A program made the translations under genes and the position numbers. The notes under the pieces were generated by a model, which had not been told where the DNA came from, did no database searches, and worked only from the letters and a program-made list of their open reading frames with translations. This document shows, piece after piece, positions 14,196 to 64,000 of a stretch of 64,000 bases of DNA (within the stretch, counting starts at the first letter, position 1; each line of letters starts with the position of its first letter). This DNA comes from Leucoraja erinacea (taxonomy: Eukaryota), in contig NC_073412.1 in the NCBI RefSeq assembly GCF_028641065.1, forward strand, positions 1,674,001 to 1,738,000, written 5' to 3'.

Positions 14196-15116
14196 TCTAC
14201 TCATTGTAAATATGTATCCGAGCACATTTCACTGAACACAGACATTGCCGAGTTGAATTGCTAATACAGGCTTCTGCCAAAAGGTAAGATGTCATTGTAT
14301 ATCCAATATGAAAGAGAGAGGAAAAAACAAGACTGGGAAATTTAATATCAACATAAAATTTAGAATCTAGAATGAATAAAATCTCAACTAATACTCTGCA
14401 AGTTCTATGGTGAAACACTGAAGGATACAACTGGAATCAATTGGATTATAATTTACAGCACTAACAACTGGATAATCTCAAATTTAATCATTCCATTAAA
14501 TGTAACTTTTTTTGTATTAAAACATTTAATGTTTGCTTTCTTTCTGTATAGTTACAATTTGCAGTGACAATCACAGACATGCATTTACACATGGAAGGGG
14601 TGTGAATAATGGCAGGATGCAGGTGAATTAGACAGACAAAGACATGAGCATTGTAGGAGAAAACAGATCTTAAATAAATCCTTAAAAAACATAAAATACC
14701 GACCACTCTGCGACTACATTCTCAAAATATTCTTGTAAACTGCCCTTGTGAAATACTTGGAACTGAGCATAGTTCCAGCTAACTACTGAGTTAGCAAAGA
14801 TCAATACCAGAGTGAATAGTTTGCATTCAGAATCCACTATTGTCTGCAATGGAAAAGGATTAAACAATGGAAATATGTAAAATGTTCCTCAGAAAAACAT
14901 GACGTCACTGTTCTACCGTCAGAAATCCTTCTTAAAATAATGAAGCAGAAACTACTGAACTAATGGAATGGGTTTGCTTGAAAAATCTAAATTATTAGCA
15001 AATTCAAACTGATGAAATTTTTCAATGTTCAAAAGGGAAAATCTTTACCTTCAGCATAAACAAATGAATGAAAAGCAATTGAATATCATTTAAAAAAAGG
15101 GTCAGGTAAAATTCTA

Positions 15117-15539
<423 letters not shown>

Positions 15540-28990: not shown

Positions 28991-29303
28991 GTTTACTTAG
29001 ATGGCAAGGGATTTATGGGACACACACATTACAGTACATACTACACGATTAATACGGAACTCTGCGGAGTAGTATGGCTTCAATACTGCTTTTTTTTCTA
29101 ATGGAAGTTATTCACAAACTAGAGGCATCATGAGGGGGATAGGCAAGACAAGGTACAATAATCCAGGCATTTCTGGACGATTAAATGGGAGTGCAGGTCT
29201 ACAACATTGTAAATGAGGAGGGGTGGTGGGGAAGAATTAAGTAGAGACAAGAGGAAAGGAGCAAGGTCTCAATGACCAGCAGGAACTACTAATGGTACTA
29301 CTA

Positions 29304-29702
<399 letters not shown>

Positions 29703-58120: not shown

Positions 58121-59006
58121 GGTGGGACTAGTGTAGATGGGGCATGTTGGTCGGGGTGGGACTAGTGTAGATGTGGCAGGGTGCTCGGAGTGGAACTAGT
58201 GAAGGACGGGCATGTTGGTCGGGGTGGGACTAGTGTAGATGGGTTATGTTGGTCGGGGTGGGACTAGTGTAGATGGGGCATTGTTGGTTGGGGTGGGACT
58301 AGTGTAGATGGGGCATGTTGGTCGGGGTGGGACTAGTGTAGACGGGGCATGTTGGTCGGGGTGGGACTAGTGTAGACGGGGCATGTTGGTCGGGGTGGGA
58401 CTAGTGTAGATGGGGCATGTTGGTCGGGGTGGGACTAGTGTAGACGGGGCATGTTGGTCGGGGTGGGACTAGTGTAGATGGGGCATGTTGGTCGGGGTGG
58501 GACTAGTGTAGATGGGGCATGTTGGTTGGGGTGGGACTAGTGTAGACGGGGCATGTTGGTCGGGGTGGGACTAGTGTAGACGGGGCATGTTGGTCGGGGT
58601 GGGACTAGTGTAGACGGGGCATGTTGGTCGGGGTGGGACTAGTGTAGGTGGGGCATGTTGGTTGGGGGTGGGACTAGTGTAGACGGGGCATGTGGGTCGG
58701 GGTGGGACTAGTGTAGACGGGGCATGTTGGTCGGGGTGGGACTAGTGTAGACGGGGCATGTTGGTCGGGGTGGGACTAGTGTAGACGGGGCATGTTGGTC
58801 GGGGTGGGACTAGTGTAGACGGGGCATGTGGGTCGGGGTGGGACTAGTGTAGACGGGGCATGTTGGTCGGGGTGGGACTAGTGTAGACGGGGCATGTTGG
58901 TCGGGGTGGGACTAGTGTAGACGGGGCATGTTGGTCGGGGTGGGACTAGTGTAGACGGGGCACGTTGGTCGGGGTGGGACTAGTGTAGACGGGGCATGTT
59001 GGTCGG
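58121..59006 (-). repeat. 34-bp minisatellite array, about 26 units, reverse complement of the 52958-53736 unit
   Basis: GGGGTGGGACTAGTGTAGA(C/T)GGGGCATGTTGGTC repeated without spacers. Confidence 0.95.
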
Positions 59007-59334
59007 CATGTGCCTTACAGTTCTCCCTGTGACTGCTGGGTTTTATCCGGGTGCTCCGGTTTCCTCCCACATCCCAAAGACCTGTAGGCTAATTGGCCCC
59101 TAGTGTGCAGGGAGTGGTTGAGAAACTGGGATACCACAGAACTAGCATCAATGGATTTGGCGGGCCGAAGGGCCTGTTTCCAAGCTGATCTTTCAATCCA
59201 TCAATTTGCCGTGATGTCTCGTCCACAAGGCACATTAAAGACCAGCAGTGTAATTGGTGTAAAAGTCATTAATTTCCCCCAATATGCAAGCGGGCGTGAG
59301 TGTACGATGCTTGCAAGCAACGAGCTGGTGAGAC

Positions 59335-59390
59335 GGGGGTGGGAGATTGCAACCTTCACGTGGTCCGCCCCTGTTTCGACGAATGCAATC
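59335..59390 (+). ncRNA. Minimal HDV/CPEB3-like self-cleaving ribozyme (predicted)
   Basis: P1 GGGGGUGG/CCGCCCCU, P2 GAUUGCA/UGCAAUC, P3 ACC/GGU, L3 UUCACGU, minimal P4 U-UUCG-A, J4/2 CGAA. Confidence 0.75.
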
Positions 59391-59466
59391 AACCTGGCGT
59401 GCACAATCAAATAGAACAAGTTGTCCTGCAACTTTAGGCTGTGCCCGCCACATGCAAGGAGAAGAC
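59335..59466 (+). mobile_element. Short retroposon headed by an HDV-like ribozyme (copy 1)
   Basis: Perfect 11-bp TSD GCTGGTGAGAC (59324-59334 / 59467-59477), AAG-type tail, homologous to 62510-62644. Confidence 0.8.
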
Positions 59467-59734
59467 GCTGGTGAGACCAGGAAAGCTACCTTCGGCAATC
59501 AGACTTGTGATGAAGTCTTAGCGAGACTTCATCATCCCCTGGCTCTGTGAAAGGAAATTAAAACATGTGCCAGAATTCTTCCCTCTCTATATCATCGTTC
59601 CTCAATTGCGATGTGAATAACAGAGTCTGTATCCAAGGCTGTGACCCCACCCATCAGTCCCCGCCAACTGACCTACTTTACATTCTGGCTCGGAAGAGCA
59701 GCTTTAAAACCTGCATTCTAGGTTCAAATCCTCT

Positions 59735-60180
59735 TAGAAACATAGAGACATAGACAATAAGTGCAGGAGTAGAGGCCATTCAGCCCTTCGAGCCTGCATC
59801 GCCATTCGATATGATCATGGCTGATCATCCAACTCAGTATCCTGTACCTGCCTTCTCTCCATACCCCCTGATCCCTTTAGCCACAAAGGCCACATCTAAA
59901 TCCCTCTTAAATATAGCCAATGAACTGTGTGGCCTCAACTACCCTCTGTGGCAGAGAATTTCACAGATTCACCACTCTCTACGTGAATTTTCTTTTTCTC
60001 ATCTCGGTCCTAAAAGACTTCCTTCCCCTTTATCCTTAAACTGTGTGACCCCTTGTTCTGGACTTCCCCAACATCGAGAACAATCTTCCTGCATCCAGCC
60101 TGTCCAACCCCTTAAGAATTTTGTACGTTTCTATAAGATCGCCCCTCAATCTTCTAAATTCCAGAGAGTACAAGCCGAGT
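59735..60180 (-). mobile_element. Young CR1-type LINE 3' fragment
   Basis: Same subfamily as 50003-50560 and 35726-36116. Confidence 0.9.
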
Positions 60181-61077
60181 CTCTTCCCTCACTGTTCCTC
60201 ATGATCATTTGTGTTTGCACAGTGAACAGGCAGGGCGGGGACTGCAGGCTCTCGTCTCTGAGTGCTATCAGTAAACCAGACAGCTTTCTACACCAATCTG
60301 GTAGTCTTGTAATTATTACCAATGACTATATAAATCGTAGGAGCGGAATTAGGCCATTTGGCCCATCACGGTGGATCTGTGACTCTTCATCAAAACCACA
60401 ACTGGTGCCAGGCTTCATGGCCTTGGTTTTTGATGCCTCAGATACAGTAAAAAAGTTGGAAGATAGACACAAAATGCTGGAGAAACTCAGCAGGTGCAGC
60501 AGCATCTATGGAGCGAAGGAAATAGGCAACGTTTCGGGCTGCAACCTGCTGTTTTAATCAGTATCCAAACTAGCCTGGTCAACATGGAGAGATAAAAATG
60601 CTGGAGTAACTCAGTGGGACTCTGGAGAGAAGGAATGGGTGACGTTTCAGATCGAGACCTTTCTTCGGTTTTCGACCCATTCCTTCTCTCCGGAGATGCT
60701 TCCTGTCCCGCTGAGTTACTCCAGCATTTTGTGTCTATCTTCCAATTTCTTTACTGTATCTGAGGCATCAAAAACCAAGACCATAAAGCTTGGCACCAGT
60801 TGTTGTTTGATGAAGAGTTGACCTCAGTTGTACTTGCTTTCCCTGCCTGGTTTGACAACGTCCTTCTTTCCTACCCGCTGGTCAGCACGGGTTCAGATTA
60901 AGGACGGAAAGTGACCTCATCCTGTTATTTTTAGACCTTGCATCTGGAGGAAAAAAAAGCTGACTGTTTCTTGAGAATCCAATCTTGCCTCTCCCTCCCT
61001 CACATGCTTTCAAAAAGTAATTGCACTGCGGAGTTGTTGGCAGGAGAAGAATATCGTTGCTCTGAAGAAAGTTAGAG

Positions 61078-61856
61078 AGTGGCACAGTGGTGCAGCGGTA
61101 GAGTTGCTGCCTCACAGCACCAGAGACCCAGGTTCGATCCTGACTACGGGTGCTGTCTGTGCAGAGTTTGTGCCTTCTCCTTCTTCTTTCAAAATCTTTT
61201 TATTTGTTTTTTTCAAAAGCAAAATAGCAATGATAAACATAACAGTGATATTGATCCAGAGGGATCAGGGTTACATTAATGGCAGGTAAAACCTAAATAT
61301 GAGCCCAGTGTCAACATACACATTGAATATAGACTTCCTGGTCTCCATGTAAATATAGTTACGTGTTTAAAAGAGCTTATATGTAAAAAACAAAAAGATT
61401 TTTTTTTAAAAAGATCGAAAAAACGAAATAACAAAACACCCCTAAACTAAAGAAGAAGAAGAAAAAAATAAATAAAAACTGAATCTGGACGGCAAAGAGT
61501 TTCAACAATTTAAGTCCTTGTTTGTCATCAAGTCCGTTGCACCGTATACCAGTAAAATAATTATAACAGTTGGAGAGGAGACAGTTCATGTCGTATGAAA
61601 ATGTTGAATAACTCTTCCCCAAGTCCGATCAAATTTAACCAAGGGTTCAACAATGTTTGTGTCTTCTCCCCGTGACCTGCGTGGGTTTTCTCCAAGATCT
61701 TCGGTTTCCTCCCACACTTCAAAGACGTACAGGTTTGTAGGTTAATTGGCTTGGTGTGAATGTAAATTGTCCCCAGTGTGTGTAGGGTAATGTTGGTGTG
61801 TGGGACTCGGTTGGCCGATGAGCATGTTCCCGCACTGTATCTCTAAACTAAACTGA
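61078..61856 (+). mobile_element. tRNA-derived SINE interrupted by an L1/Tx1-like 3' fragment (61181-61654, minus strand)
   Basis: SINE halves rejoin across a 15-bp TSD GTTTGTG(C/T)CTTCTCC (61166-61180 / 61655-61669). The insert reads VKFDRTWGRVIQHF and ends in AATAAA plus an A/G-rich tail. Confidence 0.75.
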
Positions 61857-62509
61857 AGTTGTTTCTTTGCTCTGCCTTTGATACTTCAGTTTGAAGGAAT
61901 CGGATGGAAGGAAGGACAAGGAATTAGTGAGACTGCCTCACCTTTACACCTGCACCTACTGCTGACACTAATTGAACCTTGCGGGCAGTATTGCAGTGAG
62001 TCATGCCCCATACATCCCACAAAGCTTTGCCCACCAGCTGACATCTGTGTGTTATATTGCTCTTAACTCCCTCTAAACGGTGATTATCTGTGTGTGCCTT
62101 GTGCTTAAATACATTTGCACTTTGTCAGGAGTGTCGAGAGAAAAAATACAGCGCAGTATTTGGATAGTGTCATTGGAAACATGAGCCACCAGAATGCACA
62201 CACATAACCTATGTCAAGAGCCAAGAGCTTCTTCAGATCCGATATTGAGGGGCAATCTTTTATCACAAATATTCAGTTTCCCTCCTTTTGATTTTCAAGT
62301 CTTTGGAAGGTTGATTGCTCAGGGTTTAGGGCATAAATAGAGTGGATGTGGAGAGGATGCTTCCACTTGTGGGAGAGTCTAGGACTCAGAATCGATGTGT
62401 CGAAAGGAACTGCAGATGCTGGTTTACACTGAAGAGTAATTCTTCGGAGTCTGCAGAAGTGTCTCGACCTGAACAGGTCACCTATTCCTTCTATCCAGTG
62501 ATGCTGCCT

Positions 62510-62564
62510 GGGGTGGGGAGATTGCAACCTTCATGTGGTCCGCCCTGTTTCGACTAATGCAATC
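62510..62564 (+). ncRNA. Minimal HDV/CPEB3-like self-cleaving ribozyme (predicted)
   Basis: 7-bp P1 GGGGUGG/CCGCCCU with G1-U wobble, P2 GAUUGCA/UGCAAUC, P3 ACC/GGU, L3 UUCAUGU, G-U-UUCG-A, J4/2 CUAA. Confidence 0.75.
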
Positions 62565-62644
62565 AACTCGACGTGCACAAACGGAAGATCAAATAGAACA
62601 AGTTGTCCGACAACTTTAGGCTGTGCACGCCACATGCAAGAAGA
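62510..62644 (+). mobile_element. Short retroposon headed by an HDV-like ribozyme (copy 2), inserted in a Penelope-derived repeat
   Basis: Imperfect TSD AGTGATGCT(GC/TT)CT at 62497-62509 / 62645-62657. AAGAAGA tail. Confidence 0.78.
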
Positions 62645-62824
62645 AGTGATGCTTTCTGATCCGCTGAGTTACTCCAGTATTTTGTGTTGAGTCTCAGAAT
62701 TTCGTTTAGTTATTAGAATGTTGGAACAGACTTGTTGGTCTGAAGGATTTTCTCTCAGTTCTATGTTTCTATATCCTTTCATTGGTGTATATTCACCCAA
62801 GAATAAAGGGCATTCAGGTGTTGT

Positions 62825-62980
62825 CATTTAGCTCTTAGGGCTAATGGAATCGAGGGATATGGGGGAAAAAGCAGGAATGGGGTACTGATTGGGGATGATC
62901 AGCCATGATCACATTGAATGGCGGTGCTGGCTCAAAGGGCCAAATGGCCTCCTCCTGCACCTATTGTCTATGTTTCTATG
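62825..62980 (+). mobile_element. CR1-type LINE 3' UTR fragment
   Basis: GATCAGCCATGATCACATTGAATGGCGGTGCTGGCTCAAAGGGCC family tail. Confidence 0.8.
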
Positions 62981-63127
62981 TCACAAGCTATATTGGACAG
63001 TCTGTTTAGAGACACAGCAGTGAAACAGGCCATTTGGCCCATCAAGTCCATGCTGGCCACTGACCACTAGTGACCACACCAGTTTTAGGTCATCCCATTT
63101 CCTCATCCATTCTCTCCACACTCGCGC

Positions 63128-63330
63128 TGACTACGGGTGCTGTCTGTGCGGAGTTTGCACGTTTGTCTGGGTGCTTCCTCGCACATTCACAAAGATGTGC
63201 GGGTTTGTAGGTTAATTGGCATCTGTGGATTGTCCCTAGTTTGTAGGATAGAACTAGTGTGTGGGGGATTGCCCCTTGGTGCAGACATGGTGGGCCGAAG
63301 GGCCTGTTTCAATGCTGTATCTATAAACTG
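63128..63330 (+). mobile_element. 5'-truncated tRNA-derived SINE
   Basis: CTGACTACGGGTGCTGTCTGTGCGGAGTTTGCACG...GGGCCGAAGGGCCTGTTTC...TATCTATAAACT. Confidence 0.75.
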
Positions 63331-64000
63331 CAGGCTTGGTTACTCTCTCTCCATTCTTTTCTCCCCAATGTGACCCATCTACCAATCAACCCCCCCCCCC
63401 CCCCACCTGGATCTACCTATCATAGGGTCTTACAGCATGGAAACAGGCCCTTTGGCCCAACCTGCCATAGACACAAAATGCTGGAGTAAGTCAACGGGAC
63501 AGGCAGCAACAGTCCAGGGATATGGTGAGACGGCAGGAATGGGGTACTGATTGTAGATGATCTGCCATGATCACAGTGAATGATGGTGCTGCCTCGATGG
63601 GCTGAATGGCCTACTCTTACACCTATTATCTATTGTCTATTGCATCTCTGGAGTGGAGGAGTGGGTGAAGTTTTGGGTCTAGTCCCTTCTTCACTTGCTA
63701 GCAATCCATCATTTTTCTCATTACTGCATTAGCCTGAAGAAGGGTCCTGACCCGAAACGTTGTCTGTCCAATTCCCTCGTTAGAGGGCGTTGGGGTGGTT
63801 TGGAGAGCGTTCAAGTGCGTTAGAGGCCGTTAGGTGGCATGAGTACTGTGGAGGTCATTCCAGGTCCTCCACTGTAAAATATTGCGGGAGGAATCCCTGA
63901 CATGACAGCACATCCAGATGTGAGCCTTCCTACCATTCCATGAGTTCTTGCTCGCAGTTAGTTCTGTATTTAGTTCAGTGTCCGCCTTCATCGCTGACTG

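Follow-up and report, generated by a model that had tools for sequence, protein, structure and literature searches.

A short retroelement built from both ends of a probable Vingi-clade LINE and headed by a predicted HDV-like ribozyme

Short non-autonomous retrotransposons headed by an HDV-like ribozyme are already known as a kind, represented by NARTc, RIME, SIDER and the R2 SIDEs. The first three are dispersed, combine both ends of a LINE and begin with an HDV-like 5' head (PMC4035085). The trypanosomatid heads are 77 nt long, contain P4 and have proven promoter and cleavage activity, and their partner carries an RNase H. R2 SIDEs have undergone an internal deletion that spares the ribozyme and the 3' end needed for recognition, and they are mobilised in trans (PMC6765202, PMC3414825); R2 is rDNA-specific, its endonuclease is of the restriction-like type and its ribozyme is large. 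HDV-like ribozymes are also used by some LINEs and SINEs of metazoans (PMC6765202), and ribozymes are known from lamprey, lancelet and sea urchin (PMC8256844). The L1Tc/ingi elements form the sister clade of Vingi (PMC5786205), whose members encode APE and RT domains, and no RNase H, in a single ORF of ~1000 aa (PMC13708176, PMC3708506). Bipartite derivatives of Vingi have been described, two of them (SINE2-1_ACar and SINE2-1_AMi) with an additional tRNA head, and Vingi is not among the six LINE clades named as having a 5' ribozyme in PMC5786205. Minimal HDV-like or theta ribozymes, which lack P4 and measure ~55 nt, are reported to occur to nearly 99% in phages, where they adjoin tRNAs and are active, the eukaryotic genomes covered being those of human, mouse and protists (PMC10879173).

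An earlier note, made from the letters alone, had drawn attention to an element at positions 59335-59466 of a 64-kb stretch of the Leucoraja erinacea genome (hereafter the window). Like NARTc, RIME and SIDER, this element is non-autonomous, dispersed and composed of both ends of a LINE behind an HDV-like head; however, the head is 54 nt long and nearly P4-less, the host is a vertebrate and the partner is without RNase H. The internal deletion and the likely mobilisation in trans liken it to the R2 SIDEs, whereas it would be APE-driven and is dispersed. Vingi-1_EE and Vingi-2_Gav (3,128 bp), with a single ORF of ~1000 aa, APE and RT domains, no RNase H and a length of ~3.1 kb, resemble its partner, and unlike SINE2-1_ACar and SINE2-1_AMi it has no tRNA head. 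In length and in the near absence of P4 the head is similar to the minimal HDV-like ribozymes. We propose, with a probability of about 0.8, that the element is a ~130-bp non-autonomous derivative of both ends of a ~3.1-kb, likely Vingi-clade LINE, and that its predicted ribozyme likely frees the RNA at the first nucleotide of the head (G1), after which the LINE protein copies it back into the genome.

The window copy and its family

The element lies between identical 11-bp target site duplications (TSDs) of the sequence GCTGGTGAGAC (Table 1), a perfect match as the earlier note had read it. Its other readings of the copy also held: the HDV parts are in place (P1 59335-42/59365-72, P2 59345-51/59384-90, P3 ACC/GGT, L3 TTCACGT and G59373), C59380 is found inside CGAA, and the AAG-rich tail at 59456-59466 is present in degenerate form. 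The window copy contains no tRNA-type A or B boxes at ≤2/≤1 mismatches, as had been stated, and a search of positions 58500-63500 for a tRNA found none. Three statements needed adjustment at the level of the family. The start at the predicted cleavage G is true of the family and off by one base here, where G1 is 59336, the family beginning GGGGTGG; all parts of the 56-nt head are present, the length of the family ribozyme being 54 nt; and the 8-bp P1 exists in the window copy, the family having the canonical 7 bp with a G1.U pair.

Table 1. Positions of the element, its parts and a second copy in the window
Feature	Position	Strand	Basis or remark
Left TSD, 11 bp	59324..59334	+	Same letters as 59467-59477
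G private to the window copy	59335..59335	+	Family begins with four G in 66/90 copies
Predicted HDV-like ribozyme, partner-LINE 5' end; G59336 = G1, predicted cleavage site	59336..59390	+	Descriptor, LINE heads, cross-family covariation, RNA ends
P1 5' strand	59336..59342	+	Partner 59365-59372, one extra C in window copy
P2 5' strand 59345-51; P3 59352-54 with 59362-64; L3 59355-61	59345..59364	+	
Single-P1.1-pair G, then one-pair UUCG remnant replacing P4	59373..59379	+	Read from sequence
J4/2 and predicted catalytic C59380; P2 3' strand 59384-90	59380..59390	+	
Remaining LINE 5' UTR	59391..59415	+	Corresponds to LINE nt ~55-81
Deletion junction with short inverted copy of adjoining 3' part, 7-bp hairpin	59416..59425	+	Unmatched in LINE copies
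Partner-LINE 3' end: final codons L-Q-L-stop (TAG 59435-37), short 3' UTR	59426..59455	+	298 matches vs 6 controls
(AAG)n tail, degenerate in window copy	59456..59466	+	LINE ends in same tail
Right TSD, 11 bp	59467..59477	+	Same letters as 59324-59334
Second copy, older subfamily, CTAA J4/2	62510..62646	+	TSD 62498-62509 / 62646-62657, 10/12 letters alike

The extra-C form of P1 occurs at just six places genome-wide. We considered that the extra G and the extra C might define a compensated subfamily with a shifted cut, and ruled this out because the other five of five extra-C copies have four G. Three of the six places sit on the window's contig, so a homopolymer assembly error is possible; the additional G59335 could also be a non-templated addition or a slippage product, and the 8-bp P1 would be a rare, private variant or an assembly slip. 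In the nested fold the upstream flank of the window copy is able to pair with 59373-77, lengthening P1 over the cut site. Because of the extra C in P1 and of this flank, which extends P1 across the cleavage site, the predicted ribozyme of the window copy is probably impaired and a poor cutter. The copy is also without ~10 nt of the 59391-59415 segment that most copies have.

A search of the 2.19-Gb genome returned 1,833 blast candidates, 380 exact 49-nt cores and 5,797 exact 19-nt middles, with 0 matches for the controls, and the copy number is at least 5,797. Loci selected by the core continued into the short body and AAG tail in 28 of 30 cases. Dividing 5,797 by 10 of 30 gives ~17,000 copies, 17 random 10-kb stretches contained none, and two were present in the loci retrieved for LINEs, which overlap in part and add up to 621 kb; we therefore give the copy number just as of the order of 10,000.

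The 5' ends were studied in 90 copies, which are the first among the 5,797 matches to the middle motif and come from one contig (C1); this motif lies outside the ribozyme, and the copies are therefore not selected on the head. Alignment began at G1 of GGGGTGG in 66 of the 90 copies and within the first five letters in 81, while nine were truncated or rearranged. A TSD of 7-17 bp was recognised in 67 of the 80 copies with a readable head and adjoined G1 in 58 of these 67, counts that carry no chance control. The checks on copy number, a common 5' end and TSDs proposed in the earlier note thus agree with its reading, the last two on copies from contig C1. Non-CpG change among the copies amounts to 3.3% in the head and 4.0% in the tail, the catalytic C is altered in 7 of 85 copies and the strict fold is unbroken in 25 of 81, indicating that copies decay neutrally after insertion, without selection. 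Covariation within the short family was looked for and none was found; as copies decay neutrally, it was set aside as a test of the fold. Three pairs of copies (L173/L174, L029/L030 and L039/L040) have near-identical flanks and are probably segmental duplications or assembly duplicates.

As regards the surroundings, neuroplastin exons were recognised on the minus strand at window positions 15114-15539 and 29301-29702, the second with an E value of 1e-72 to PDB neuroplastin; taken by itself, this gene marks the host as a vertebrate. A GC-rich stretch at ~46-47 kb is likely the neuroplastin promoter, which would place the element upstream of this gene, on the other strand. A 34-bp minisatellite (58121-59006; 26 copies, 94% matches) ends ~320 bp before the element.

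The partner LINE and its Vingi affinity

A motif for a LINE C-terminus ending in the 3' letters of the element had 298 genomic matches, compared with 6 for controls, and in 29 of 30 fetched loci a frame ending in WMSTLDLQL-stop was followed by the UTR of the element and the AAG tail. The head of the element was found in sense orientation on 12 distinct LINE copies among 30 loci, with starts at query letters 2-14. In one copy, L121, a TSD encloses both LINE ends; this copy measures 2.78 kb and misses ~335 bp present in others, hence our estimate of ~3.1 kb for the partner LINE. The single ORF of the partner encodes APE and RT domains and carries a Cys/His motif in its C-terminal part; none of the copies inspected has an intact ORF, the longest open piece being 345 aa. 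Its closest intact protein (P0001, 1,019 aa) is 75% identical. The best relatives are mostly APE-RT proteins of ~1000 aa, with PF00075 in none among the 120 matches listed, and one long gene model among the relatives has an LTR-type RNase H with an integrase.

A single ORF, APE and RT domains, no RNase H and a length of ~3.1 kb correspond to the Vingi architecture. The hedgehog element called 'Ingi' is presumably the one that was later named Vingi. Compared by eye, the RT of the partner is far closer to hedgehog and beetle 'Ingi' than to trypanosome Ingi (RTclass1 set, supplement of PMC3708506). Our RT tree took in no named Vingi reference, and the membership of the partner in the Vingi clade, based on its architecture and on the by-eye comparison, is likely.

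The short element corresponds to LINE nt 1 to ~81, a short junction holding an inverted copy of the seven letters that follow it, and the last ~45 nt of the LINE; it has no ORF, and the window copy is 132 bp long. Its 5' end, 3' end and tail are thus common with one LINE, and L121 carries both ends, features of a bipartite LINE. We had considered the whole 3' half to be a relic of the LINE C-terminus, and rejected this: just the last four codons are, and the middle has no LINE match. Shortness, TSDs, a simple-repeat tail and a large number of copies would also suit a classical Pol III SINE whose head is merely ribozyme-like, but neither A/B boxes nor a tRNA are present and the head comes from the 5' end of the LINE itself, which makes such an origin scarcely credible. 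By its sequence the element is instead an internally deleted LINE derivative (a SIDE, or bipartite LINE). Of the ribozyme-headed SINE described in the earlier note there remain the non-autonomous retroposon, the HDV-like head, the lack of Pol III boxes and the common start at G1; the term SINE gives way to deleted LINE ends.

Directly behind the ribozyme lies a region able to pair with the 3' UTR, over ~9 bp in young copies (L043:1550-1630), and in the window copy positions 59396-59404 could pair with the 3' end of the element, as in the fold of the natural copy L043. Such a 5'-3' panhandle behind the ribozyme may explain the deletion point. An inverted 5' piece, of the kind produced by twin priming, was seen in 9 of 33 partner-LINE loci (L091, L096, L097, L102, L108, L116, L117, L122 and L157); in four of them it starts at LINE nt 71-86, a zone that coincides with that of the deletion junction of the short element, and reaches to 6-17 nt from G1.

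The predicted ribozyme fold and the RNA 5' ends

Our own HDV descriptor matched exactly two places in the window, namely the window copy and the copy at 62510; there was no match on the minus strand or in four shuffled windows. A descriptor search had been proposed in the earlier note, as had a comparison with Rfam. With the Rfam CPEB3 model RF00622 the window head scored 13.6 bits (E 1.8), under the 35-bit cut-off. Four other loci of the partner LINE family (family A) or the short element had no Rfam ribozyme match, and we set Rfam aside as proof for the window head. The identity of L3, UUCACGU, with that of CPEB3 was confirmed on the Rfam consensus. Nested folding energy was likewise set aside, since five stretches folded with ViennaRNA, which cannot score the pseudoknot, were not more stable than shuffles (z from -1.2 to +1.1). 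Neither the Rfam score nor the nested folding energy counts as evidence alone. Three letters separate the heads of the LINE, the old copies and the young copies, namely one in J1/2, one that turns a U-A pair into U.G and the second base of J4/2 (CGAA in young short copies, CTAA in the LINE and older copies), and all three differences are neutral for the fold.

A protein search identified four more such LINE families in the genome. In the three whose 5' end was reached we found an HDV fold of differing sequence with a real P4, the P4 region of sister families measuring 18-45 nt. The comparison was widened to a metagenome set of 80 loci, 25 of which reach the N-terminus; four of these have too little upstream DNA, leaving 21. 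The fold stood directly upstream of the ORF in 9 of the 21 (six distinct families), versus 1 of 126 reversed or shuffled controls, and there was no match at this place in the other 12. Eleven heads were aligned with MAFFT, L306 being left out. In this alignment 87% of the cells pair, both sides have changed in 14 of 17 pairs, and the covariation score is 0.596, versus 0.221 for shuffled and 0.07-0.17 for slid alignments, values to be read with the fact that the heads were picked by a descriptor demanding pairing. For this reason the 9/21 count and the place of the fold at the element end outweigh the covariation score. The covariation in P1 and P2 that the earlier note had named as a check is thus present across families, in rows chosen by a pairing descriptor, and absent within the short family. 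Judged from these comparisons, the HDV fold is probably a trait of the Vingi-like clade. The window family is set apart by the reduction of P4 to a one-pair UUCG remnant, and this reduction is already seen in its LINE.

A near-intact Vingi-like element of another family (family B; L347, G000:C34:17696414-17702338) has a 1,086-aa frame with three stops, an HDV-like head and a TAAA tail. We also observed a second short family (L377-L379; G000 contigs C13, C2 and C22) of ~165-175 bp, whose P4-less HDV-like head scores above the CPEB3 cut-off. Its 3' end resembles LINE family C, an AAG tail is present in two of the three copies (L377 is without it), and L378 has a clear TSD.

Among the indexed runs we found no RNA match to the window stretch. 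Four raw-read RNA runs from two studies, tied to the species by label, were aligned onto the natural copy L043, in which G1 is position 1496. Between 3,521 and 4,381 reads aligned per run, nearly all of them on the element. Before position 1496 the top loose end, among the matches listed, ends in GGG and is what we take to be a template-switch adapter. It occurred at G1 in 1,554 and 1,282 reads of the two single-cell runs (agreement 0.80 and 0.76), and in the two bulk runs it was mixed with flank (505 and 649 reads, agreement 0.41 and 0.44). In all four runs, with two adapter variants and in two studies, the adapter was joined directly to G1, which places the 5' end of family RNAs at one defined point, the predicted cut site. 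Short cDNAs are over-represented among adapter-bearing reads, and the alignment's table of molecule starts contained no entries. Poly(A) was found after positions 1619-1626 and may reflect priming by oligo-dT within the AAG tail.

Since the adapter has GGG at its end and the element GGGG at its start, the pile-up, which concerns the top loose ends among the matches listed, might be a strand-invasion artefact at a G run, with a fold that is perhaps unused today. However, invasion would overlap the G run, whereas the GGG of the adapter precedes 1496 and comes on top of the element's own four G; this argues against invasion, and the recurrence of the junction with two adapter variants in two studies points the same way. 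We consider an artefact very unlikely.

After template switching a 5'-OH end and a capped start look alike, and template switching favours capped RNA. The discrete end would hence also suit the main rival to our reading, an internal Pol II promoter that sets the 5' end of the same bipartite element at G1, the fold being a relic weakened by the loss of P4, or a protective or protein-binding 5' cap. A T precedes G1 in 41 of 80 copies, as would also be expected of a pyrimidine-purine initiator, P4 is almost lost and the Rfam score is as low as 13.6 bits. There is also precedent, the Pr77 head of L1Tc acting as promoter and as ribozyme alike and some SIDER heads being inactive although they fold well (PMC4035085). 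On the other hand, three helices and the catalytic positions have been kept across unrelated heads, which a DNA promoter would not need, and the second short family, also P4-less, has its pairing unbroken. We regard a promoter in place of a ribozyme as improbable, but promoter and ribozyme may both act, as in Pr77, and the earlier note's view of a ribozyme used instead of a promoter is one possibility.

The 54-nt head is accordingly placed among the HDV-like ribozymes as a likely member with predicted cleavage; given one P1.1 pair and a near-absent P4, it may be a slow one. In the cycle that we favour, a host Pol II transcript would run through a copy, and the double pseudoknot would fold and cleave 5' of G1, leaving a unit RNA with a 5'-OH, the step to which the observed RNA ends at G1 correspond. 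The APE-RT protein of the LINE would bind the common 3' UTR and AAG tail and insert the RNA by target-primed reverse transcription; the common 3' end and the TSDs are observed, and mobilisation would take place in trans. The RNA being short, most insertions would be full length, and most indeed start at G1. Inserted copies then decay neutrally, as observed, and the window copy would be one such insertion, likely impaired.

Relation to the CPEB3 ribozyme and significance

Some relatives of the window head score far higher on RF00622. Heads of LINE family D and of the metagenome locus L319 reached 61.2, 56.0 and 55.6 bits; the RTs of family D and L317, which stands for the element of L319, group with support of 96/90, apart from the partner of the window element. 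In the genome 48 of 59 scored places were above the cut-off, compared with 0 in 14 control genomes, a weak control. Eight loci were fetched and comprised two family-D LINE heads, three members of the second P4-less family, one third short element, one locus that stops after the head, and L383 (G000:C19:8183423-8183823). In L383, 43 of 46 letters agree by eye with the Rfam CPEB3 consensus into P4; behind the head come the remnant of a Vingi-like C-terminus and an A-rich end. The third short element (L380, G000:C11:32942695-32943095) is ~235 bp long and has a CPEB3-like head of 64.9 bits, a Vingi-like ORF start, an AAG tail and a TSD; by its sequence it is a third bipartite derivative.

The 5' end of gharial Vingi-2_Gav, as given in the PMC5786205 supplement, agrees by eye with the CPEB3 consensus in 38 of 40 letters ahead of the P4 interior and in 14 of 14 behind it. 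The word 'CPEB3' does not occur in the text of PMC5786205, nor do 'transpos' or 'origin' in that of PMC8233481, and the human genome holds traces of Vingi (PMC5753468). Since P1-P3 vary freely among Vingi-like families, the likeness of the sister heads to CPEB3 points to common descent. The CPEB3 ribozyme is thus likely of retrotransposon origin, a suggestion in which direction and domestication are inferred from the retrotransposon heads. The window head itself shares with CPEB3 the topology, L3, the G1.U pair, the single P1.1 pair and a 2-nt J1/2; CPEB3, in contrast, is single-copy, intronic and has P4, whereas the window head is nearly P4-less and multi-copy, has little P1/P2 sequence in common with it (13.6 bits) and belongs to a LINE on another branch than the CPEB3-like families. 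A wider proposition, which we hold with less confidence than the origin of the short element but consider reasonably probable, is that Vingi elements carry HDV-like ribozymes as a clade trait and seed vertebrate genomes with thousands of minimal units, the CPEB3 ribozyme being a domesticated Vingi 5' end.

The literature search brought up no paper that deals with the window family, with a ribozyme in Vingi or with a descent of CPEB3 from Vingi. Relative to the literature examined, three things would be new: that Vingi elements carry a ribozyme, that a vertebrate has one with almost no P4, and that sister heads reach 56-65 bits on the CPEB3 model. Elements of Vingi type or from fish may already be treated in Ruminski 2011, Kojima 2011, Webb 2009, Webb and Luptak 2011 or in their supplements.

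These results would carry non-autonomous retrotransposons with a ribozyme head beyond trypanosomes and insect rDNA, to a dispersed vertebrate family of the order of 10,000 copies, and would add a eukaryotic case of an HDV fold with almost no P4. A 5' ribozyme in Vingi would explain the bipartite derivatives of this clade, a matter left open in PMC5786205, and it is relevant to Vingi-based gene-insertion tools that use native UTRs (PMC13708176). Copies lying in the sense strand of introns or UTRs could cut host RNAs, and the origin of the memory-linked CPEB3 ribozyme becomes directly testable.
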